This document shows, in pieces, positions 20,052 through 55,180 of a DNA stretch of 64,000 nt. The notes under the pieces were generated by a model. That model was not told the DNA's origin and did not search any database. It saw nothing but the letters and a program-made list of their open reading frames with translations. Source of the stretch: an uncultured bacterium (GTDB lineage Bacteria; Patescibacteriota; Minisyncoccia; Phycocordibacterales; UBA9973); contig CAIJZZ010000030.1 in assembly GCA_903825255.1 (NCBI GenBank), positions 20,956 to 84,955 on the forward strand. The letters run 5' to 3'. The translations under genes were made by a program, and so were the position numbers. Every line of letters begins with the position of its first letter. Within the stretch, counting starts at the first letter, position 1.

Positions 20052-22301
20052 ATGGATTTACCCCAAATACCTTTAAACAAAGATTTGACTTACATCGGAC
20101 TCACGACTTTTCGTGATAAAAATACTCTTTTCGGTATCAAGCGCAAAGATAGGCGTCAGCACGTATATTTACTTGGAAAGTCAGGTACTGGTAAATCAGT
20201 GTTGATGTTTAATATGGTTATTCAAAATATTATCAACGGTGAAGGTGTTTGCGTAGTTGATCCTCATGGAGAATTAGTCGAGGGAATTTTATCGGCTATA
20301 CCACCAAATCGTTTGAAGGATGTAGTATATTTTAATCCAGCTGATATTGATTATCATATTGGTTTTAATGTTTTGGAATTAATTGATCCACAATATAAAC
20401 ATTTGGTCGCCTCAGGACTCATGGGTATTTTTACGAAAATTTGGGCGAATGCTTGGAGTGCTCGTATGGAATACATTTTAAACAATGCGATTTTGGCATT
20501 ACTAGATACTCCTGGAACAACCTTGCTTGGAATTCCTCGAATGCTCGTGGACAAAGATTATCGTCAGAAAATAATTTCAAATTTAAAAGATCCAGTGATC
20601 AAGGCTTTTTGGGTGCATGAATATGAAGCTTGGCAAGATAAGTTTCGTAATGAAGCCATCGCCCCGATTCAAAATAAAGTCGGACAATTTCTTTCAACTT
20701 CCATTATTCGAAATGTTGTTGGTCAGTCAAAAAGTACGATAGATATTTTTGAAATTATGAACAGTGGAAAAATTTTTCTTGTAAACGTTTCAAAAGGGCG
20801 TATTGGTGAAGACAACTCTGCATTACTCGGAGGGATGATCATCACCAAAATTCAATTAGCAGCGATGGAACGTGTACGTATTCCTGAAGATGACCGTAAA
20901 GATTTTTATTTATATGTCGACGAATTCCAAAATTTCGTAACAGAATCTTTTGCTGGTATTTTATCTGAAGCTCGAAAATATCGTTTGAATCTTACAGTGG
21001 CGCACCAGTACACAGCCCAACTCGTTTCAGACAAAAGTTCAGCTGTGCGAGATGCAGTTTTTGGCAACGTCGGGACGATGATTGTTTTTCGAGTCGGCTC
21101 AGATGACGCAGAATTTTTAGAAAAAGAATTTGATCCAGAATTCACTCCATCGGACATTGTGAATTTACCAAACTATAAAATTTATCTAAAACTAATGATT
21201 GATGGGGTTACTTCAAGACCATTTTCTGCAAAGACGTTACCGCAGATGGTAAAATCAGGTAATATAGAAATCGAGCAAGAAGTTATTAAATCATCCCGTG
21301 CCCTTTATTGTAGATCCAGAGAAGATGTTGAACGTGAAATCAATAATTGGAGCGGAATGTCGCTTGGAGATGATATTACTAGTGCTGGTGATGTCGAAAT
21401 GTTTGCGGCAATTTGTTCTATTTGTCATAAAGAGACAAAGGTGCCATTTAAACCACAACCAGATAGACCAGTGTATTGTAAAGATTGTATTGCTAAAATG
21501 AAGACAGGAGAGTTGAAACCTCTTCGAGGCTCAATGAATCAAATTAAAGAAGATGAAATTAAATTTTTTAAACCATTAGCAGATTTGGGTATTGAATTTG
21601 AACCAAAAGAGAAACACACTGAGTCTGAAAGATATCCAGAAAGAACAAATGAAAATAAGCCGATTATGAGTAGTAATAAACCAAAAATTTTTGGAGCTCT
21701 TAAAAAAGTTTTTACCCCGTCACTCGCGAGCAACAGGGTTACACCATCATCTGCAAACAATACAGCTAATAAAAATATTCCACCTATAAATCCACAGCCG
21801 ATAAATAGGCCGAATCCTGTTTATGTAAAAAATGATTTTAAAAATCAAAATCAAAAATCAACTTTTGTAAATAAGGAAAAAACTAGAGACAACTCAGCCT
21901 TGCGAGATATTTTAAATAAGACTCTTTCTGAAAATAAAGTTTTTGAAGTCAAAAAGGAAGAACCAAAAATGGAAGAAATTAAAAAAGAGACTCCTCCACC
22001 GATCTCCTTGAGCGATTTAAAAGTTCAAAAACCAGCTAATATTTCAAATTTAAAGGATCGAGGAGCAAGTGTTGAAGATATGAGTAAATTAAAGAATTTA
22101 ATTTCAGAAACAAAAATTCCTATACCTGAACCTACTAAAGAAACTCCTGTTTTTGTTCCTGAGCCCATAAAAGAAATTCCAAAAGAAGAACCTAAAGAAG
22201 AAATAAAAAAAGAAGAAAAATCTGTTCCCATTCCTTCAGTTTCACCGTCTGGAAAGGTACGCGAAGTACCAGAAGATGTTTTAAGAAAAATTTTAGAATA
22301 A
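20052..22301 (+). CDS. TraD/VirD4/HerA-like P-loop ATPase with a CxxC-x17-CxxC domain and a low-complexity tail
   Basis: Walker A GKSGTGKS, DPHGE, Walker B LYVDEFQNF, EARKY; CSIC-x17-CKDC; P/E/K-rich C-terminus. Confidence 0.85.
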   Translation: MDLPQIPLNKDLTYIGLTTFRDKNTLFGIKRKDRRQHVYLLGKSGTGKSVLMFNMVIQNIINGEGVCVVDPHGELVEGILSAIPPNRLKDVVYFNPADIDYHIGFNVLELIDPQYKHLVASGLMGIFTKIWANAWSARMEYILNNAILALLDTPGTTLLGIPRMLVDKDYRQKIISNLKDPVIKAFWVHEYEAWQDKFRNEAIAPIQNKVGQFLSTSIIRNVVGQSKSTIDIFEIMNSGKIFLVNVSKGRIGEDNSALLGGMIITKIQLAAMERVRIPEDDRKDFYLYVDEFQNFVTESFAGILSEARKYRLNLTVAHQYTAQLVSDKSSAVRDAVFGNVGTMIVFRVGSDDAEFLEKEFDPEFTPSDIVNLPNYKIYLKLMIDGVTSRPFSAKTLPQMVKSGNIEIEQEVIKSSRALYCRSREDVEREINNWSGMSLGDDITSAGDVEMFAAICSICHKETKVPFKPQPDRPVYCKDCIAKMKTGELKPLRGSMNQIKEDEIKFFKPLADLGIEFEPKEKHTESERYPERTNENKPIMSSNKPKIFGALKKVFTPSLASNRVTPSSANNTANKNIPPINPQPINRPNPVYVKNDFKNQNQKSTFVNKEKTRDNSALRDILNKTLSENKVFEVKKEEPKMEEIKKETPPPISLSDLKVQKPANISNLKDRGASVEDMSKLKNLISETKIPIPEPTKETPVFVPEPIKEIPKEEPKEEIKKEEKSVPIPSVSPSGKVREVPEDVLRKILE
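21714..21739. repeat. Short palindromic element in the ATPase tail
   Basis: ACCCCGTCACTCGCGAGCAACAGGG, 22/25 identical to the reverse complement of 29341-29365. Confidence 0.7.
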
Positions 22302-22317
22302 CTCTATTTAAAGATTT

Positions 22318-24075
22318 ATGACAGAAAAAACAGAAACTCGGGTTTGCCAAAACTGTAAACAAAACTTCACTATAGAGTCTGAGGATTTTAGTTTTTATAA
22401 TAAAATCGGAGTACCAGCACCACTTTGGTGCCCTCGTTGTAGATTTTTACGAAAACTCACTTATTTAAATGACCGTTGTCTTTATAAAAGCAATTGTTCA
22501 AATTGTAAAGAAAATATTATTTCCAGATATCATCCAGATTCCAATGTACCAGCTTGGTGTATGAAATGTCATATTAGTGACACTTGGGATGGTAGAGATT
22601 ATGGTAGAGAATATGATTTTTCTAAAAATTTTTTTGAACAATTCAATGAGTTAAGAAGTGTTGTGCCTCAACGGGCACTTGATAAAAATGAAAGAAACGG
22701 CCCAGGTTGTGAATATTCGAATTACTGTTTTACTAGTAAAAATATTTATTTATCATATTGTGTGCATAAATCAGAAAATATTAAATACTGCAAACATACT
22801 TATTTGGATACTAAAAATTGTCTTGATTGTTTAAGGGTTAAAAAAAGTGATCGTTGTTATGAAATAGTCCAATCTAGTGATAGTTTCAGTTCTACTTTTT
22901 TAATTGAGAGCGAACAATGTATTTCATCACATTTTTTATTTGATTGTGTAAATTGTATTGATTGTTGTATGTCATCGGGACTTCGAAATAAAAGTAACGT
23001 TTTTCGAAATAAACAATATTCTAAAGAAGAATATCAAAAAGCGATTTCTGAGTTACGACTCGATACTTATTCAGGTCAAAAAATAGCCAAAGAAGAATTC
23101 GAAGAGCTGGCTCGAAATTCTATTCACCGATTTGCTCATATAAAAAATTCTATAAATTGTGCAGGTGATTTTATTGCGAATTCAAAGAATTGTGTTCATT
23201 GTTATGGTATAGAAACTGCAGAAAATTTGAAAAATTGCTTTCTTTCTATGGCACCCAATGTTCAAGATTCTCAAGATCTTATAATGACAGGAAGAGGAGA
23301 GGAGTGTTATGAAAGTACAAATGCAGGCCGAGGTATGAGCCGAGTACTTTTATCATTTAGCTGTGGTAGTGGTTGTAGAAATATACTCTATAGTGATGGT
23401 TGTCGAGGTTGTATAGATTGTTTTGGCTGCATTAGTTTAATAAATCAAAAGTATTGTATTTTAAATAAACAATATTCTAAAGAGGAATATTTTAAAACAG
23501 TTGAGGAAATAAAAAAACAAATGAACGAAGTACCCTATGTTGATAAAATCGGCAGGGTATATGGTTTTGGTGAATGTTTTCCACCAGAACTTTCTCCTTT
23601 TACATATAATGAGAGTTTTGCTTTTGAAGAACATCCTTTATCTCGCGAAGAAGCCTTGGCTAATGGCTATAAATGGAGAGAAAGGGAATCTAAGGCTTAT
23701 ACGTCTTCTATCCAAGTAAACGATATTCCTGAAAGTATACACGATGTTTCTGATTTAATTTGTGATGGAACTATTGAGTGTTTAAATAAAGGAAAAGTGG
23801 AGACTCTCTGTACTTCGGCTTTTAAAATATTACCTGATGAACTAGTTTTTTATAAACAAATGAATTTACCTATACCTAGATATTGTCCAAATTGTAGGTA
23901 TTATGATCGTATAAAATGGAGAAATCCTTTTAATTTTTATACCAGAGAATGTATGTGTGGTCTTTTAAATCATAATCATAAAGGGAAATGTTCAAATAAA
24001 TTTGAGACTATGTATGCGCCGGAAAAGCCAGAAATTATTTATTGCAAGGAGTGCTATCAGAGAGAAGTGTATTAG
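22318..24075 (+). CDS. Cys-rich multi-zinc-ribbon protein, paralog 4 (array B)
   Basis: MTEKTETRVCQNC...CKECYQREVY; lies between the two ATPases. Confidence 0.85.
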   Translation: MTEKTETRVCQNCKQNFTIESEDFSFYNKIGVPAPLWCPRCRFLRKLTYLNDRCLYKSNCSNCKENIISRYHPDSNVPAWCMKCHISDTWDGRDYGREYDFSKNFFEQFNELRSVVPQRALDKNERNGPGCEYSNYCFTSKNIYLSYCVHKSENIKYCKHTYLDTKNCLDCLRVKKSDRCYEIVQSSDSFSSTFLIESEQCISSHFLFDCVNCIDCCMSSGLRNKSNVFRNKQYSKEEYQKAISELRLDTYSGQKIAKEEFEELARNSIHRFAHIKNSINCAGDFIANSKNCVHCYGIETAENLKNCFLSMAPNVQDSQDLIMTGRGEECYESTNAGRGMSRVLLSFSCGSGCRNILYSDGCRGCIDCFGCISLINQKYCILNKQYSKEEYFKTVEEIKKQMNEVPYVDKIGRVYGFGECFPPELSPFTYNESFAFEEHPLSREEALANGYKWRERESKAYTSSIQVNDIPESIHDVSDLICDGTIECLNKGKVETLCTSAFKILPDELVFYKQMNLPIPRYCPNCRYYDRIKWRNPFNFYTRECMCGLLNHNHKGKCSNKFETMYAPEKPEIIYCKECYQREVY

Positions 24076-24116
24076 GTTGGAAATTATTGAAAAAAGTAGT
24101 AAAATAAGCATATATT

Positions 24117-25607
24117 ATGCCCAAACCAAATCGAGTTCAAATAATAAAATATGGTCCACCACCACCAGAGCTGCCTGTTTTCGGCAAAGTAAATCCAGAA
24201 GAAGCTTCTTTTATTGGACGTACAAATTATGTTGCAGCCCTAGAGGAAAAAAAATTTGTTTTCGGAATTAAGCGTGTAGACCGTCGAAGACATTTATATA
24301 TTATTGGAAAGTCAGGCGTCGGAAAGTCTAAATTACTTGAGCTTCTTATTCGTCAGGATATTCAATATGGGCATGGCCTATGTTTGATAGATCCTCACGG
24401 TGACGAATTTAAAAATATTTTAGATTTTGTTCCAAAAGAGCGCATTGAAGATGTTTGTATTATTGATCCTACGGATGTAGATTTTCCTGCATCTTTCAAT
24501 CCGTTGGCCAATGTTGACCCTGCTTTTAAATTTATTTTAACTCAAGGTTTGATTGAAGTTTTTCAAAAACAATTCGGAGCCAACTGGACTCCACGTCTCG
24601 AACACGTTTTTCGTTTTACCTGTTTAGCCTTACTCGATTATCCGCATGCCACGATGCGCGGAATGATTTCAATGTTGACGGACAGAAATTATCGACAGAA
24701 AGTCGTTGAATATATTACGGACGATATGGTGAAAAGATTCTTCGCTATTGAATTCGCGGATTGGTCTGAAAAATTTGATACTGACGCTATCATTCCACTC
24801 GTAAACAAACTAGGGCAATTTCTTTCAGATCCATTACTTCGAAATATTTTCGGACAAAAAGAAAACAAAATTGATGTTGGTAAGCTTATGAATGAGAAGA
24901 AAATAATTTTGATTAACATTTCTAAAGGCCGTCTAGGTGAAGAGAATTCTTCTTTCTTGGGTTCAATGTTTTTGACTAAAATCAAACAGGCTGGAATGGA
25001 GAGAGCAAGTCTTCCGGAGAGTGCTCGAACCGATTTTTATTTATATGTCGATGAGTTTCAAAATGTCGTGACTCAGACATTTGAAAATATTTTATCAGAA
25101 GCTCGTAAATACGGTTTAAATCTTACAGTAGCGCATCAATATGTGGGTCAAATCATCACAAAAGTGCACCAAGCTGTGCTTGGTAATTGTGGAAGTATTA
25201 TTACTTTTCGTATTGGTGGTGAAGATGCCGTAAAAATGAAACCAGAATTTGCTCCACTTTTCGATGTGAAAGATATGATTAACCTTGCGGTAGCTGAGTT
25301 TTATATCAAAATGACTATCGATGGTGAATCATATGATCCTTTTTCCGCGGAGACTTTAAGAGTTTTACCTCCGACTCATATTTCTTATCAAAAAGAAATT
25401 ATTGCAGCTTCTCATCGAAAATATACAATTTCCAAAGACGCAGCAGCTGAACTTATTGCAAAAGAAGAAGCGACAATTATCCGAAGTGCTGAAGAAAAAG
25501 CGATAATTGAAGGTAAGGGTAAAAAAAATAAAAAAGAAAATAATGAAGACGAAGAAGAGGCTACCACATCTAAAAAAGCTTCACAAGAAGCAGAGCCTAT
25601 GATATAG
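24117..25607 (+). CDS. TraD/VirD4/HerA-like P-loop ATPase (second paralog)
   Basis: GKSGVGKS, DPHGD, LYVDEFQN, EARKY. Confidence 0.85.
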   Translation: MPKPNRVQIIKYGPPPPELPVFGKVNPEEASFIGRTNYVAALEEKKFVFGIKRVDRRRHLYIIGKSGVGKSKLLELLIRQDIQYGHGLCLIDPHGDEFKNILDFVPKERIEDVCIIDPTDVDFPASFNPLANVDPAFKFILTQGLIEVFQKQFGANWTPRLEHVFRFTCLALLDYPHATMRGMISMLTDRNYRQKVVEYITDDMVKRFFAIEFADWSEKFDTDAIIPLVNKLGQFLSDPLLRNIFGQKENKIDVGKLMNEKKIILINISKGRLGEENSSFLGSMFLTKIKQAGMERASLPESARTDFYLYVDEFQNVVTQTFENILSEARKYGLNLTVAHQYVGQIITKVHQAVLGNCGSIITFRIGGEDAVKMKPEFAPLFDVKDMINLAVAEFYIKMTIDGESYDPFSAETLRVLPPTHISYQKEIIAASHRKYTISKDAAAELIAKEEATIIRSAEEKAIIEGKGKKNKKENNEDEEEATTSKKASQEAEPMI

Positions 25608-25622
25608 TCTTCAAATAAATTT

Positions 25623-26279
25623 ATGCAAAAAGACTACTACAAAACATTAGGGGTTGAGAAAGGCGCTTCAAAGGATGAAATCAAGAAGGCTTTTTATAAG
25701 TTGGCTCATAAACATCATCCAGATAAAAAAGGCGGTGATGAAAAGAAATTTAAAGAAGTAAACGAGGCTTATCAAGTTCTTTCAGATGACGCTAAACGTT
25801 CAAAATATGACCAATTTGGCTCTGGTTATGAGAATATGGCTGGTGGAGGCGGAAATTATGGAGCTTATCAACAAGGTGGTTTTGGAGGTTTTGATTTTTC
25901 TGGCTTTCAACAAGGTGGCGGGCAAGAGTTTGATTTTGGGAATTTAAATGATATTTTTAGTGATTTTTTTGGTGGTGGAGGAGGTTTTTATGCACGTACT
26001 CCTCATGGACGGGATATGCAGACTGAAATACAAATTTCTTTAACTGATTCTATTTTAGGTGTAGAAAAAAAGTTAGTGATCGGTGGGAATAAAGAATTAA
26101 AAATAAAAATTCCAGCAGGAATTCAAAATGGTCAAACTTTAAAAATGACCGGAGAGGGTGAACAAATAAAAAATGGTAAAGCGGGGGATTTGTATATAAA
26201 GATTAATATAAAAATATCAAGTAAGCTTTCTAAGCGCGCCCGCGAGCTCCTAGAAGAACTTAAAAAAGAAGGAATTTAA
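25623..26279 (+). CDS. dnaJ: Compact DnaJ-family co-chaperone (J domain, G/F region, single C-terminal domain, no Zn finger)
   Basis: DYYKTLGV...HPD, G/F-rich linker with [14 protein letters not shown]...GDLY. Confidence 0.85.
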
Positions 26280-26284
26280 TTTTT

Positions 26285-26884
26285 ATGATATCTTCACAAT
26301 TTATATATCTTGTAATACTTTCAACTATAGTTGGATATTATTTTTATTTTAAAGATTTTCTTTTTGGTAAAACTAGACCCAATTTAGTCTCTTGGTTTAT
26401 TTGGATGTTAGCACCTTTTATCGGAGTTTATTTTCAATTAAAAGCGGGAGCAGGACTTTCTGTATTACCTGTATTTATTGCAGGCTTTGGTCCACTTTTA
26501 GTATTAATTTTTTCTTTGTTTAGAAAAAATGGATATTGGAAACTTACGATGTTTGATTTAATCTGTGGATTATTATCATTAATGGCACTTACTGTTTATA
26601 TTCTAACTAGAAATTTAGGGGCCTCAATAATTTTTGCTATTTTGAGTGATGGCTTAGCTGCTTTTCCAACTATTATAAAATCATGGAAATTTCCAGAAAC
26701 AGAGACAGGAATTTTATATTTTTCAGGAATTATAAATAATATTATAGGATTACTGATTATAAAAGAATGGATTTTTTCAATCTATTCTTTCGGTATTTAT
26801 TTTATAATAGTAAATACAGTATTAGTATTTTGTATTTATCGAAAAAGAATTTCTGGATTTTTTGGTAAAAAATGCTATATTTAG
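26285..26884 (+). CDS. Multi-pass membrane protein of unknown function
   Basis: About 6-7 hydrophobic segments; G.TRPN..SW and PTI.KSW..PETE repeats, PQ-loop-like. Confidence 0.65.
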   Translation: MISSQFIYLVILSTIVGYYFYFKDFLFGKTRPNLVSWFIWMLAPFIGVYFQLKAGAGLSVLPVFIAGFGPLLVLIFSLFRKNGYWKLTMFDLICGLLSLMALTVYILTRNLGASIIFAILSDGLAAFPTIIKSWKFPETETGILYFSGIINNIIGLLIIKEWIFSIYSFGIYFIIVNTVLVFCIYRKRISGFFGKKCYI

Positions 26885-26887
26885 GCT

Positions 26888-27748
26888 ATGTTAAAAAATA
26901 AATTTGTGACAGTTGGAGCTGTGCAAAATGCAGTCTCTACTAATCAAGAAAACAATTTAAAAAAAACGGCTAAACTTGTTGAGCAGGCAGCTAAAAAAGG
27001 TTCCCAAATTATTTGTTTACAGGAGCTTTATAAGACTCGTTATTTTCCACAATATCCAAAATTAGAAAAAAAACAATTTTCTGAAACTATTCCTGGTGAA
27101 TCAACTAAGGTTTTTGCAGAAATTGCGAAGAAATATAAAGTGGTGATAATCGTACCGATATTTGAACGAGATGCAGAAGGTAAATATCATAATTCTGCTG
27201 TAGTTATTGATGCAAACGGAAAATTATTGTCGACGTATCGAAAGATTCATATTCCACAAGACCCACTTTTTTATGAAAAAAATTATTTTGAAGAAGGGGA
27301 CACTGGTTATAAAATATATAAAACAAAATATGGCACTTTTGCCGTGTTAATTTGCTATGACCAGTGGTTTCCAGAAGCAGCTAGGGCTGTGAAGCTTGCT
27401 GGGGCAGATATTGTTTTTTATCCTACAGCCATTGGCACCATTTCTGGAGAGAAGCAATCTGAGGGTGATTGGCATGATGCTTGGGAGACAATTATGCGCG
27501 CGCACTCTATAGCGAATAGTTTATACGTGGTAGCGGTGAATCGTGTAGGTATTGAAGAAAAATTGAATTTTTGGGGGCAGTCCTTTATTTGCGATGCATT
27601 CGGGAAAGTAATCAAAAGAGCTTCTAAAAATAAAGATGAAATTATAATGTCCAAAATTGATTTAGCTAAGAATAAAATAATAACCGACGAATGGGGTTTT
27701 ATGCGCAATCGTCGTACGGATACTTATGGATCTCTTGGTGTAAAATAA
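26888..27748 (+). CDS. aguB: N-carbamoylputrescine amidase (C-N hydrolase)
   Basis: E-K-C triad motifs LQEL, YRKIHIP, ICYDQWFPE; adjacent to agmatine deiminase. Confidence 0.85.
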   Translation: MLKNKFVTVGAVQNAVSTNQENNLKKTAKLVEQAAKKGSQIICLQELYKTRYFPQYPKLEKKQFSETIPGESTKVFAEIAKKYKVVIIVPIFERDAEGKYHNSAVVIDANGKLLSTYRKIHIPQDPLFYEKNYFEEGDTGYKIYKTKYGTFAVLICYDQWFPEAARAVKLAGADIVFYPTAIGTISGEKQSEGDWHDAWETIMRAHSIANSLYVVAVNRVGIEEKLNFWGQSFICDAFGKVIKRASKNKDEIIMSKIDLAKNKIITDEWGFMRNRRTDTYGSLGVK

Positions 27749-27749
27749 T

Positions 27750-28799
27750 ATGTCAGAAGAAGATTTAAAAGAAAATAATTTTCGAATGCCGGCTGAATGG
27801 GAAGAACATGAGGCTACTTGGCTTGCTTGGCCGAATGACCCTGATTATTTCGGGGAGAGAATAAAAAATATCGAAAAAATATATTTACAAATGATTTTTG
27901 CTTTACATAAGGACGAAAGAGTAAAGCTTTTGGTTTTAAATGAAGAGATGGAGATTAGGGTAAAAAAAATGATCAGTGATTTTGGTGTTGATTTATCCAG
28001 GGTTATTTTTTACCAAACAGAGTACGTGGACGTTTGGGTCCGAGATTATGGACCGACTTATGTTAAAAATATGAATAAAAAGGCCTGGGTTAAGTGGCAT
28101 TATGACGCTTATGGAAAAAAATTTCCAGAATTATTTAAAGACAATGAAATATTTTTGAATTTAAAAGAAATGGTTGGTTTTGAAATGTTTTCAGTTGATT
28201 TAGCAATGGAAGGTGGAGCAATTGATTCAAACGGACTAGGAATTATTTTAACCACTGAAGAATGTTTAATAAAAAATCGTAATTTAAAAAAAGGTAAAGA
28301 ATATACGGAAAATATTTTTAAAAAATATCTTGGAGCTCAAAAAATTATTTGGTTAAAGAATGGATTATTGAATGATCATACGGATGGGCATATTGATGAA
28401 GTCGCACGATTTATTGGTCCATCAAAAATAGTTTGTGCTTATGAGGATGATAAGAATGATGAAAATTATACTAGATTATCTGAAGATTATGAGATTTTAA
28501 AAAATGCTATTGATCAGGATGGTAATACTTTTGAAGTTATTAAGTTACCAATGCCCCATATGTATTTTGATGAAGGTGATAAAGAGTTTAATGGTAAAAA
28601 GGCACCTGTTTCCTATGCAAATTTTTATATTGGAAATGAAACTGTTTTAATGTCTTTATATGGTGACGAGAATGATGCTAGGGCTTTATCTATAATTCAA
28701 TCTTGTTTTCCTGATAAAAAAGTCATAGGCATAGATTGTCGAGATCTTGTCTATGGTGGTGGGGCGATTCATTGTATTACTCAACAAGAACAAAAATAA
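27750..28799 (+). CDS. aguA: Agmatine deiminase
   Basis: RMPAEWE, WVRDYGP, EGG, DHTDGHID, GGGAIHCITQQ. Confidence 0.92.
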   Translation: MSEEDLKENNFRMPAEWEEHEATWLAWPNDPDYFGERIKNIEKIYLQMIFALHKDERVKLLVLNEEMEIRVKKMISDFGVDLSRVIFYQTEYVDVWVRDYGPTYVKNMNKKAWVKWHYDAYGKKFPELFKDNEIFLNLKEMVGFEMFSVDLAMEGGAIDSNGLGIILTTEECLIKNRNLKKGKEYTENIFKKYLGAQKIIWLKNGLLNDHTDGHIDEVARFIGPSKIVCAYEDDKNDENYTRLSEDYEILKNAIDQDGNTFEVIKLPMPHMYFDEGDKEFNGKKAPVSYANFYIGNETVLMSLYGDENDARALSIIQSCFPDKKVIGIDCRDLVYGGGAIHCITQQEQK

Positions 28800-28811
28800 T
28801 TTTTTATATAT

Positions 28812-29789
28812 ATGCAAACCAAAACAGCTGAATTTGTGAGTCCAGGTCATCCAGACAAAATCTGTGATTTTATTGCAGATTCTATTTTAGATGCTTATTT
28901 GGCGGAAGATAAAGAAAGTCGAGTCGCTATTGAAGTGATGGGTGGACATAAGTTGATTACGATCAACGGAGAAGTGACGAGTACAAGTAAACCGAGCCTA
29001 GAATTTATAGTAAAAAAGATAGTTGGAGAAGATTATAAAATAGTTGTGAATATTGCTGAGCAAAGTCAGAGTATCGCGCAAGGAGTAGATACTGGAGGTG
29101 CTGGTGATCAAGGCATAATGAAAGGCTATGCAATAGCAGAGACAGAGACGATGATGCCCCGTGAATACGAATTAGCACGAGATTTATGTCAGAAAATTTA
29201 TGCGAAATATCCATATGATGGAAAAACACAAGTAACTATAGAAGGAAATAAAATAAAAACAGTGGTCGCTAGTTTTCAAAATACTAAAAATATAGAATTA
29301 TTGGAATTAGTAAAAAGTATAATTACGCAGTCTGAGATCGCCCTGTCGCTCTCGAGCGACGGGGTTCAATATTTAATTAATCCGGCAGGTGAGTGGACGC
29401 AAGGAGGTTTTGAAGCAGACGCAGGCTTGTCTGGTCGCAAATTAATTGTGGACAATTATGGACCAGAAATTCCGATCGGTGGTGGTTCTTTTTCTGGAAA
29501 AGATTATACAAAAGTTGATCGTAGCGGAGCGTATGTCGCTCGTAAAATTGCAGTTGATTATATAAAAAGTGGTAAAGCCAAAGAAGTATTTGTGAAGTTG
29601 GCCTATGCGATAGGAAAATCAGAACCTGTAATGGCCGTGGCTATTCTAGATGGTAAAGAAAAAAAAATTGAAGGTTATGATTTGAGTCCAACTGGTATCA
29701 GAAAATTACTAAATCTAGACCAAGTTCAATTTGCCAAAACTTGTCAGTGGGGCCACTTCGGCCATTCTGAATTTCCTTGGGAAAAATAA
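28812..29789 (+). CDS. metK: S-adenosylmethionine synthetase (compact)
   Basis: EFVSPGHPDKICD, GAGDQG, GRKLIVDNYG, GGGSFSGKD.TKVDRS. Confidence 0.95.
   Translation: MQTKTAEFVSPGHPDKICDFIADSILDAYLAEDKESRVAIEVMGGHKLITINGEVTSTSKPSLEFIVKKIVGEDYKIVVNIAEQSQSIAQGVDTGGAGDQGIMKGYAIAETETMMPREYELARDLCQKIYAKYPYDGKTQVTIEGNKIKTVVASFQNTKNIELLELVKSIITQSEIALSLSSDGVQYLINPAGEWTQGGFEADAGLSGRKLIVDNYGPEIPIGGGSFSGKDYTKVDRSGAYVARKIAVDYIKSGKAKEVFVKLAYAIGKSEPVMAVAILDGKEKKIEGYDLSPTGIRKLLNLDQVQFAKTCQWGHFGHSEFPWEK
29341..29365. repeat. Short GC-rich palindromic element inside metK
   Basis: CCCTGTCGCTC-TC-GAGCGACGGGG hairpin, in frame (..ALSLSSDGV..). Confidence 0.7.
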
Positions 29790-32174: not shown

Positions 32175-32274
32175 ATATGTCTAAAGTATAGCAAATATTT
32201 GCCTCGCTTCAAAATACTTATGTTTATAAGAAGTGGGGTTGCAATTTTCTCAAATTTAATATAAGATAAAAACT

Positions 32275-32592
32275 ATGGAATTTGCCGTTATAAAAACAGG
32301 TGGAAAGCAGTATAAGGTCTCCGAAGGGGGTCTTGTTTCCATTGAGAAAATAAAAGGAGAATATAAAAAAGGGGATAAAGTTTCCTTTGACAAGGTTCTC
32401 TTAGTTGATGATGGAAAAGATACCACTATTGGCACTCCTTATATTACTGGCGCTAAAGTTGAAGCTGAAATTGTATTAATCGGTAGAGCTCGTAAGATTT
32501 TGGTGGTCAAATATAAGCAAAAGTCTCGATATTTACGACGTAATGGCCACCGTCAGCCTTTCTTTAAAGTAAAAATCCTTTCAATCGCATAA
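32275..32592 (+). CDS. rplU: 50S ribosomal protein L21
   Basis: FAVIKTGGKQYKV, GHRQ. Confidence 0.97.
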   Translation: MEFAVIKTGGKQYKVSEGGLVSIEKIKGEYKKGDKVSFDKVLLVDDGKDTTIGTPYITGAKVEAEIVLIGRARKILVVKYKQKSRYLRRNGHRQPFFKVKILSIA

Positions 32593-55080: not shown

Positions 55081-55180
55081 TTTTTGCCCTTTATTGCCGA
55101 GTCTGTTAAAAATTAATTTTTAATTGGTTTAGCAATAAAGGGAAAACGCGGATGCCGAAAAGCGAACAGAGTAGGCAAAA
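55081..55180 (+). ncRNA. Candidate structured RNA leader or ncRNA
   Basis: CCCTTTATTGC (55087-97) pairs with GCAATAAAGGG (55132-42); second stem TGCC-GAA...AGTA-GGCA has a loop-E/bulged-G signature. Confidence 0.45.

Follow-up and report, generated by a model that had tools for sequence, protein, structure and literature searches.

Why should two unrelated genes of one small bacterial genome contain nearly the same palindrome, in frame and in opposite orientations? The question is raised by a stretch of 64,000 nucleotides (here called the window) in which an ATPase gene and metK each hold such a sequence. An earlier note on this DNA had read the pair as members of a very short mobile hairpin family. 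The two genes and the two palindromes, which we assign to a family designated A, are as follows.

20052..22301, + strand: host gene 1, an ATPase resembling type IV secretion system (T4SS) coupling proteins (TrwB/TraG/VirD4-type)
21714..21739, + strand: family A copy 1, in frame, 3 mismatches to the consensus
28812..29789, + strand: host gene 2, metK, encoding S-adenosylmethionine synthetase in a short 325-aa form
29340..29365, - strand: family A copy 2, in frame in metK

The plus strand reads ACCCCGTCACTCGCGAGCAACAGGGT at 21714-21739 and GCCCTGTCGCTCTCGAGCGACGGGGT at 29340-29365. The related palindromes that the earlier note had placed at 21714 and at 29341-29365 are thus both present, the 22/25 identity that it gave for the two 25-mers was reproduced, and both copies keep the reading frame as it had stated, encoding TPSLASNRV in the ATPase and ALSLSSDGV in MetK. 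Its 25-nt length needs correction, as the true unit is one base longer (26 nt). Its "looser relative" at 32202-32239 was rejected as a family A member because the local alignment score of 5 lies at background level (mean, 4.5; 95th percentile, 7); this sequence is a separate hairpin (RNA dG, -12.2). The mobile-family reading itself is favored by further copies in the genome and by an indel in metK, both described below.

A dispersed 26-nt palindrome

The family A consensus, ACCCCGTCGCTCGCGAGCGACGGGGT, is a perfect 26-nt palindrome consisting of an 11-bp GC stem and a 4-nt CGCG loop (RNA dG, -21.1), and its orientation can be read from a single asymmetric position, 5/22. When the pattern proposed in the earlier note was searched across the 0.98-Mb host genome, whose relatives are named Candidatus Nomurabacteria, further copies were found (6 loci). 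A mismatch scan without indels, which may have overlooked indel-bearing copies, brought the number to 14 at ≤8 mismatches to the consensus; ten shuffled genomes gave 0 matches at ≤7 mismatches and 1 at 8, and a reversed-pattern control scan gave 0. Within the window, a degenerate pattern spanning both copies matched exactly 2 sites, versus 0 in 100 shuffles.

Eleven of the 14 copies are intergenic, many of them 20 to 40 nt past the end of a gene, and the remaining three lie in frame inside ORFs of 325 to 749 aa; the nearest-spaced copies are 1.2 kb apart. Stem pairing is retained in 89.7% of 572 stem cells, and double-sided changes account for 22 cells, mostly at pairs 9-18 and 10-17. The symmetry of the stem is therefore maintained through compensatory changes. 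An Rfam scan of the window found no family at either palindrome copy. The sole Rfam match in the window was a DUF805b RNA at 55145-55177.

Among other genomes, family A was found in 12 of 24 further members of the genus that were sampled (0 to about 11 copies each, with copy number differing widely among related genomes) and in only 3 of 400 genomes sampled across the rest of the phylum. One intergenic copy occupies the same syntenic position in three species. Metagenomes yielded more than 120 stretches with family A, ranging in GC content from 26 to 61%; among the 80 of these that were fetched for locus analyses, only 3 had two copies within 500 nt. The window stretch itself was present in four lake-water metagenome runs of one study, the contigs of which run through both copies without a gap, a joint, or a changed base; this result is uninformative on mobility because these contigs are of low depth and possibly come from the window's own source.

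Filled and empty sites in protein-coding genes

Besides a treble-clef zinc finger, the ATPase has a tail of low complexity, and copy 1 comes directly after the conserved ...IKKVF, where the variable C-terminal tail begins. This copy is decayed: it carries three G>A changes, every one at a CpG, and its hairpin is weak (RNA dG, -5.3). The palindrome is missing from 16 of 18 ATPase orthologs, whereas the ortholog in genome G022 has a decayed orthologous copy that matches at 18/27 positions and encodes TPPFARDRF. As the ATPase copy and its G022 ortholog illustrate, coding family A copies can decay by G/C>A/T changes.

Copy 2, the hairpin of which is intact (RNA dG, -19.2), lies immediately ahead of YLINPAG in MetK, within an insert of +33 nt, or 11 residues, relative to empty orthologs. 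Alignment of MetK orthologs, a check suggested in the earlier note, showed a clean indel at the palindrome position, with the insert missing from 16 of 19 orthologs in a first set and 62 of 68 parsed loci empty in a wider set. In canonical MetK structures, the linker that contains this site is longer. In other lineages, two different GC palindromes occupy the same place, and in locus L133 the site holds a palindrome with a RAYT-type GCCTTGCC loop. Three species with MetK proteins only ~74 to 76% identical share one and the same 19-nt core of the metK palindrome, which is not expected of a neutral relic; a quick MetK tree was largely unresolved and is compatible with one family A insertion or several.

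The third coding copy in the genome lies in the C15 protein and is missing from 14 of 15 orthologs. All three coding copies sit in length-tolerant segments: one in a linker on the MetK surface and the other two where variable C-terminal tails begin. In ligA, we found an exact, in-frame solo copy of hairpin B, which flanks a RAYT-like gene. Another ligA hairpin, at residue 572 (C22:11978), was rejected as an insertion, since orthologs differ in length by only 3 to 4 residues there and the segment is widely conserved.

Family A is thus dispersed at unrelated loci, and its orthologous sites are empty in most relatives. We consider it probable that the two window sequences are copies of an orphan, non-autonomous, REP/RPE-like mobile palindrome. 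No transposition event was seen in the sequences compared. New copies would arise by a trans-catalyzed cut-and-copy reaction on folded single-stranded DNA.

tRNA-Trp cassettes and rival readings

Family A also splits tRNA-Trp loops beside a small GIY-YIG gene (PF01541, 57 bits), an arrangement found with the ORF ~10 to 65 nt from the palindrome in 13 of the 80 metagenome loci and in genomes G015 and G008. The order is constant: a displaced tRNA-Trp copy with the palindrome in its loop, the GIY-YIG ORF, and then an intact tRNA-Trp; tRNA-Trp was present in 14 of the 18 regions examined. The displaced copy reads CTCC-palindrome-CCAAA, versus CTCCAAA in the neighboring intact tRNA-Trp, and an insertion in a D-loop reads AGTTT-palindrome-TTAGTGG. 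The insert in tRNA contexts is therefore 26 nt plus a 2-nt duplication (CC, TT), although the tRNA duplications may stem from one or two events and thus support that length thinly. An insert of 26 + 2 nt implies that coding survivors must have regained frame, which would explain the restriction of the coding copies seen to tolerant loops and to the reading frame. A functional, intron-containing tRNA was rejected as an explanation for the palindrome-bearing tRNA-Trp, since the intact tRNA-Trp next to it is the only one called by ARAGORN and Rfam; given that the insert splits the anticodon and that an intact copy always lies alongside, we treat the split tRNA-Trp as displaced and dead. The cassette probably carries the palindrome between lineages.

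This constant architecture invites a reading in which family A is the cis-site of the small GIY-YIG cassettes: the nuclease would cut the extruded hairpin or close to it, repair from a filled allele would copy the palindrome along with the gene or without it, and solo copies would be homing footprints rather than traces of transposition. A tRNA-Gln cassette in genome G000, in which another GC palindrome takes the corresponding position, and the presence of GIY-YIG genes in 34 of 41 genomes are in keeping with such homing. Nevertheless, we judge it unlikely, as an inserted palindrome occurs only in the Trp cassettes and this one Gln cassette, 67 of the 80 metagenome loci have no GIY-YIG gene nearby, and genomes rich in family A (G000, G006, and G023) have no close Trp-type GIY-YIG protein, proteins at least 79% identical being found only in G015 and G008. 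Among relatives, 9 of 25 GIY-YIG loci have a tRNA just downstream, and the upstream hairpins of the others resemble parts of a duplicated tRNA. The pattern suits a single old insertion into the dead tRNA copy of the cassette, which was then carried along. Selection on the host side would be another way to account for the family, with the palindrome serving as a strong bidirectional intrinsic terminator and/or as the operator of a dimeric DNA-binding protein and the coding copies being accidental. The many copies just past gene ends, the orthologous intergenic copy in three species, the compensatory stem changes, and the conservation of the metK core at synonymous positions all speak for this possibility. 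So do a T-rich tail (≥6 T in the next 9 nt) at 18 of 51 family A sites (background, 16.5%), present on both sides at 8 of 51, and an abutting -35/-10-like motif at 7 of 51 (background, 1.2%), although both enrichments are overstated because the background was drawn from random genome positions rather than from intergenic positions only. The abutting promoters resemble T-TGACA-17-TATACT, and two of them share the whole spacer; TATACT boxes adjoin C3:15296, C3:16591, and C9:15974. Yet a T-rich tail is missing at 33 of 51 copies and a promoter at 44 of 51; independent terminators would not be expected to have one common 26-nt sequence; and the palindrome is also found within three protein genes, where it keeps the frame, as well as in rRNA-operon spacers and in the D and anticodon loops of tRNAs. 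Given also that occupancy of orthologous sites varies, that coding copies decay, and that neither window copy matches Rfam, we regard a host cis-element as quite improbable.

All three coding copies in the genome are translated in the same frame, as might be expected if the encoded peptide, TPSLASDGV, were a linker module selected as protein and spread between genes. This proposal is very hard to reconcile with the 11 of 14 copies that are non-coding, with the decay of the peptide (to TPSLASNRV here and to TPPFARDRF in G022), and with the 12 ORF-spanning metagenome copies, which distribute over the frames as 5, 6, and 1; moreover, none of the three frames has a stop codon, so the use of a frame requires no selection at the protein level. 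A more far-reaching, and doubtful, possibility is that family A and the other GC palindromes of these genomes insert specifically into the loops of pre-existing DNA or RNA hairpins with a 2-nt duplication, by a single-strand reaction of an undescribed type with no transposase encoded by or linked to the element. The anticodon loop and D-loop of tRNAs and the center of another copy would be instances of such targets, and the tRNA-Trp/GIY-YIG cassette would be the vehicle between CPR lineages. Were this the case, the metK linker, a hot-spot for at least three different palindromes, would reflect targeting and not tolerance alone, and the palindromes would rank among the smallest DNA units known to propagate themselves, steadily supplying essential proteins of ultra-small bacteria with new peptide loops. 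Under the mobile-palindrome reading that we prefer, the host has probably recruited some of the intergenic copies, either as terminators or as elements beside promoters.

Candidate enzymes and known systems

The earlier note had seen no mobilizing enzyme in the window, and indeed none of the genome's four PF01797 (Y1) matches lies on the window's contig. Hairpin-flanked HUH/Y1 genes, for which it suggested looking elsewhere, do exist in this genome, each intact gene having its own hairpin on both sides, but these hairpins are of families other than A. A RAYT-like protein scored 41 bits against PF01797 (cut-off, 23), and all 30 of 30 homologs keep H81-F-H83 and Y141; at 8 of 30 RAYT-like loci, one and the same hairpin stands on either side of the gene. 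The NF047646 scores of 48 and 24 bits fell short of the cut-off of 80, and no PDB sequence matched the RAYT-like protein. The proteins thus appear to belong to the Y1 superfamily and may or may not be equivalogs of RayT. RAYT-like genes were found in 32 of 41 genomes.

A cognate enzyme for family A was sought by coordinate cross-check and in 30 RAYT loci, 10 loci from A-rich genomes, and 80 metagenome loci. An A-like hairpin was present at 0 of 43 RAYT-like loci; at least 11 mismatches separated family A from even the best match among the 10 additional loci of A-rich genomes; and 0 of 80 metagenome loci had a RAYT-like gene within 1.5 kb. A gene bracketed by family A may have been missed in this genome, the assembly of which has 78 contigs. 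By coordinate comparison, the closest family A site to any RAYT match is about 7 kb away. Copy number does not track RAYT count either: genome G003 has 12 RAYT-like matches and 1 family A copy, and G014 has 11 and 0. We tentatively name one of the genome's RAYT-like HUH/Y1 transposases as the likeliest enzyme, a choice somewhat more apt to be wrong than right. The hairpins that bracket these transposase genes are built like family A, and at least one of them has reached ligA, where it stands alone and in frame.

Few known genomes are as small and streamlined as those of CPR/Patescibacteria; nevertheless, this genus has several palindromic repeat families, and palindromes remodel the essential proteins MetK and LigA at recurrent hot-spots. 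In full-text literature searches, no paper was found that connects CPR bacteria with REP/RAYT or RPE-like elements, the matches being CPR-only or REP-only. If the elements are active, they would provide a natural record of insertion-tolerant protein loops and, for uncultivated lineages, markers for strain typing. They would also allow a study of how orphan palindromes spread without a transposase of their own, a question that CGTC-tagged REPs (PMC3733652) raise as well. For annotation, the palindromes account for unusual GC-rich "islands" in CPR housekeeping genes and for differences in the length of these genes.

Several known systems resemble family A in part. Rickettsia palindromic elements (RPEs) are reportedly selfish sequences of about 100 to 150 bp that lie in frame in housekeeping genes, at surface-exposed, tolerant positions, in a small AT-rich genome. 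Family A likewise inserts in frame in protein genes of a small genome, but it is 26 nt long, has no sequence relation to RPEs, and resides in a CPR bacterium rather than an alphaproteobacterium. The small dispersed repeats (SDR) of Nostoc, 21 to 27 nt long, and the GC clusters of yeast mitochondria resemble family A as very small, hairpin-forming mobile repeats of AT-rich genomes that can insert into coding genes and RNA genes, and no enzyme is known to mobilize them. Their hosts are unrelated. The strong consensus hairpin recalls an intrinsic terminator, yet a T-run follows it at only 18 of 51 sites. Compared with a MITE, the whole family A unit is one inverted repeat, its 2-nt duplication derives from perhaps one or two events, and no parent IS was found.

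The closest parallels are with REP/REPIN elements and their RAYTs ("REPtrons"). Like these, family A is short (20- to 40-nt class), GC-rich, dispersed, mostly extragenic, and downstream of genes; its copy number is lineage specific; and the same genomes have hairpin-bracketed RAYT-like genes. In contrast to REPs, family A and its flanks lack the conserved GTAG head at which RAYTs cleave, and its palindrome is perfect rather than imperfect. Its copies are singlets, at most about 14 per genome, whereas REPINs are inverted dimers present in the hundreds, and, unlike in a REPtron, it adjoins none of the RAYT-like genes examined. RAYTs are described as single-copy in one preprint (bioRxiv 10.1101/2022.05.22.493013), whereas the RAYT-like genes here are multi-copy, with up to 12 in a 0.6-Mb genome. 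According to Di Nocera et al. 2013 (PMC3733652), CGTC-tagged REPs, which include Rickettsia RPE-4 and RPE-6, have a terminal CGTC tag, an 8- to 9-bp stem beginning with A/T, a 4- to 5-nt loop, and a CCA-like tail; some are intragenic, different REPs occur at about the same recB site, and no dedicated transposase was found although RAYT/IS200 genes are present. Family A differs in that its CGTC is internal and base-paired, its 11-bp stem is G+C, it has no conserved or CCA tail, and its host belongs to another phylum. It agrees with the CGTC REPs in having intragenic members, palindromes at the same site, no paired transposase, and a CGTC/GACG motif. Taken together, these comparisons place family A as a probable orphan REP/RPE-like mobile palindrome, a variant of a kind already described elsewhere.

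Copies and structure of family A

The window (contig C30, 20956-84955) belongs to an assembly of 980,388 bases in 78 contigs with 32% G+C, whose relatives by MetK are in most cases named Candidatus Nomurabacteria (Parcubacteria/Paceibacterota, CPR). The two palindrome sequences described in the earlier note were borne out. Their joint pattern matches exactly these two window sites and none in 100 shuffles. The hosts of these two copies of the 26-nt GC palindrome (family A) are as follows.

20052-22301, ORF for a T4SS coupling-protein-like ATPase with a zinc finger (copy 1, 21714-21739)
28812-29789, metK (copy 2, 29340-29365)

Further copies, which the note had proposed to look for, were found across the genome. 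A mismatch scan with the consensus, the perfect palindrome ACCCCGTCGCTCGCGAGCGACGGGGT, returned 14 copies at ≤8 mismatches (one identical to the consensus), whereas ten shuffled genomes gave no match at ≤7 mismatches and one at 8. Of the 14, three are in long ORFs, namely both window copies and C15:7660, whose host gene encodes a protein of 535 aa that has a squalene-hopene-cyclase-like domain; the remaining 11 are intergenic or within ORFs of ≤74 aa only, often 22 to 76 nt past a gene end. When 52 copies from the genome and its relatives were compared, the stem was paired in 89.7% of 572 cells, double-sided changes occurred in 22 stem cells (chiefly pairs 9-18 and 10-17), and position 5/22 was asymmetric (C.A or T.G) in 22 copies. 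RNA fold energies were -21.1 kcal/mol for the consensus, -19.2 for the metK copy and just -5.3 for the ATPase copy, which carries three G>A changes, every one at CpG.

The copies at C9:1230-1380 and C10:40160-40300 have longer flanks in common, and these constitute an outer inverted repeat (GAACGRAGTGAA ... TTCACT..). At one fetched locus (L290), downstream of a GIY-YIG ORF, a family-A unit is apparently nested in the centre of another, and at a second (L219), downstream of tRNA-Trp, half-palindromes form a tandem array with a 37-nt period. The looser relative that the note placed at 32202-32239 proved to be unrelated to family A. This stretch forms a hairpin of its own, with 9-nt arms around an AT-rich 20-nt loop (RNA dG -12.2). 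It lies where the AI-2E transporter gene and ORF 32275-32592 diverge, and a promoter-like motif, TTGCAA...TATAAG, comes after it.

The genome also carries a second metK (C34:1873-2802) that lacks the insert and is 75% identical to the window gene. Given this gene, a contamination estimate of 6.3% and a genome size that is the largest of the genus, the assembly appears to mix two related organisms. In 22301-23858, within ORF 22318-24075 (585 aa, no Pfam match), many joints in the contigs of four metagenome runs skip 77 to 1151 bases, and depth is 5- to 10-fold higher at 23408-23708; the segment 22301-23858 is either repeated or common to many organisms. An Rfam match to DUF805b RNA (RF02914) lies at 55145-55177 (+), scoring 46.1 bits (gathering score, 35.6).

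Occupied and empty sites in orthologs

MetK orthologs do show an indel at the palindrome. In a first sample, 16 of 19 sequences had the empty site, II-x-A-E-E|YLINPAG; among 80 further loci, 62 of the 68 parsable ones were empty. The insert measures +33 nt in the window metK and +30 nt in G006, a relative with the same CTCTCGAG core variant; another relative, G016, has a different, AT-rich insert of +30 nt. Family A also occupies metK in loci L121 and L127, the latter encoding a MetK identical to that of G006. Two different GC palindromes fill this position in L133 and L135, and the loop of the former, GCCTTGCC, is typical of RAYT-flanking hairpins. The MetK of L190 has +2 residues at the site. 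Resolution of the MetK tree is too low for insertion events to be counted. In solved MetK structures, the site falls in a linker ~10 residues longer than the empty Nomurabacteria form.

The ATPase palindrome directly follows the conserved ...IKKVF, and unrelated tails occupy this position in 16 of 18 orthologs; the closest ortholog (G022) has ACACCGCCTTTTGCAAGAGACAGGTTT, in which 18 of 27 positions match and most differences are G/C>A/T. The copy in the C15 protein comes at the end of the conserved domain (...MQKFE|) and is absent from 14 of 15 aligned orthologs. Further copies and the empty sites in all three proteins fit a mobile palindrome, as the note had proposed, and the coding copies are probably in-frame survivors within tolerant segments.

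The ligA gene holds an exact copy of hairpin B, one of the RAYT-flanking hairpins, in frame and coding VVRQGLTT, and in the LigA of relatives these variable sites hold different GC-coded inserts. Several such in-frame inserts at variable sites are seen in C22:10263-12365 (ligA) and loci L370-L395. Two species carry the peptide module GFRAGL.GVRGPG.PRTREN in LigA, each at a different site (site 1 in G013, site 2 in G018), which suggests a second mobile in-frame element.

Distribution and tRNA cassettes

Among other genomes of the genus, 12 of 24 carry family A at ≤2 mismatches in the 22-nt core, as does 1 of 16 genomes from the order's other genera. Copy numbers range from 0 to about 11 per genome, and a reversed-pattern control gave no matches. 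Phylum-wide, 3 of 400 other sampled genomes, from three different families, had one copy each. Metagenomes yielded at least 120 stretches with family A, and in the 80 loci fetched (G+C 26-61%), 72 copies were intergenic and 12 lay in ORFs of ≥120 aa (frames 5/6/1). One intergenic copy, between genes for 193 and 230 aa, has the same syntenic place in the window's genome, G015 and G006. Relative to random genome positions, intergenic or otherwise, a T-rich tail adjoins at least one side of 18 of 51 sites (background, 16.5%), and a T|TGACA-17-TATACT-like motif abuts 7 of 51 (background, 1.2%). Copies near rRNA genes (L111:5397 and L114:1999 of G015; L120:1999 of G039) lie about 140-170 nt upstream of 16S and 23S or in the 16S-tRNA-Ile spacer.

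Family A splits a copy of tRNA-Trp in G015, G008 and 13 of 80 metagenome loci, either in the anticodon loop (CTCC|pal|CCAAA) or in the D-loop, and an 85-aa GIY-YIG ORF and then an intact tRNA-Trp follow. Such GIY-YIG genes occur in 34 of 41 genomes, often directly upstream of other tRNA genes; in a search of the 41, the genomes richest in family A had none of the Trp type. We read the presence of family A in these cassettes as hitchhiking.

L113:1948-2480 (G015), GIY-YIG/tRNA cassette
L108:1620-2120 (G008), GIY-YIG/tRNA cassette
C14:500-920 (window's genome), GIY-YIG/tRNA cassette
C30:11479-12036 (window's genome), GIY-YIG/tRNA cassette

Small GIY-YIG nuclease genes precede genes for tRNA-Trp, -Gln, -Tyr, -Ser or -Val by ~40 nt, and upstream of the nuclease gene is a displaced copy, partial or whole, of the same tRNA. 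The unit looks like a free-standing homing-endonuclease cassette targeting tRNA genes.

RAYT-like transposases and the nature of family A

The PF01797 profile matched the genome at four places, two above the cut-off, all outside the window.

C8:1061-1788, RAYT-like Y1 transposase gene
C38:34937-35680, RAYT-like Y1 transposase gene
C73:1-582, RAYT-like Y1 transposase, gene half at contig end
C62:1-429, RAYT-like Y1 transposase, gene half at contig end

Every gene or half is flanked by a 21-nt GC hairpin of its own; these hairpins make up families B (3 copies), C (5 copies) and D (2 copies). The products are 217-231 aa long and score 48 and 24 bits with the RayT equivalog model, below its cut-off of 80. 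Homologs are encoded by 32 of 41 genomes, with up to 12 in one genome of roughly 0.6 Mb; such multiplicity is unusual for RAYTs. All 30 homologs compared keep the HUH and Tyr motifs, and at their loci, the same hairpin on both sides was seen in 8 cases and a one-sided hairpin in 9; the remaining 13 had none at the threshold used. The hairpin-bracketed transposases that the note had suggested seeking do exist, but the family-A hairpin was found at 0 of 43 RAYT-like loci, and 0 of 80 metagenome loci had a RAYT-like gene within 1.5 kb of the palindrome. The mobilising enzyme of family A, for which both the Y1/HUH transposases and the GIY-YIG nucleases were considered as candidates, is inferred.

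These results are consistent with an orphan REP/RPE-like mobile palindrome, amplified in the genus and sporadic elsewhere. Such an orphan palindrome leaves unexplained why three species share an identical 19-nt metK core, why different palindromes recur at a single metK site and why a subset of copies abuts promoter-like motifs. Known repeats of a comparable kind include RPE, SDR and the GC clusters of mitochondria. A full-text literature search found no paper joining CPR bacteria with REP/RAYT- or RPE-like repeats. Precedents do appear in PMC3733652, which describes intragenic REPs, REPs at the same site and CGTC REPs without a transposase.
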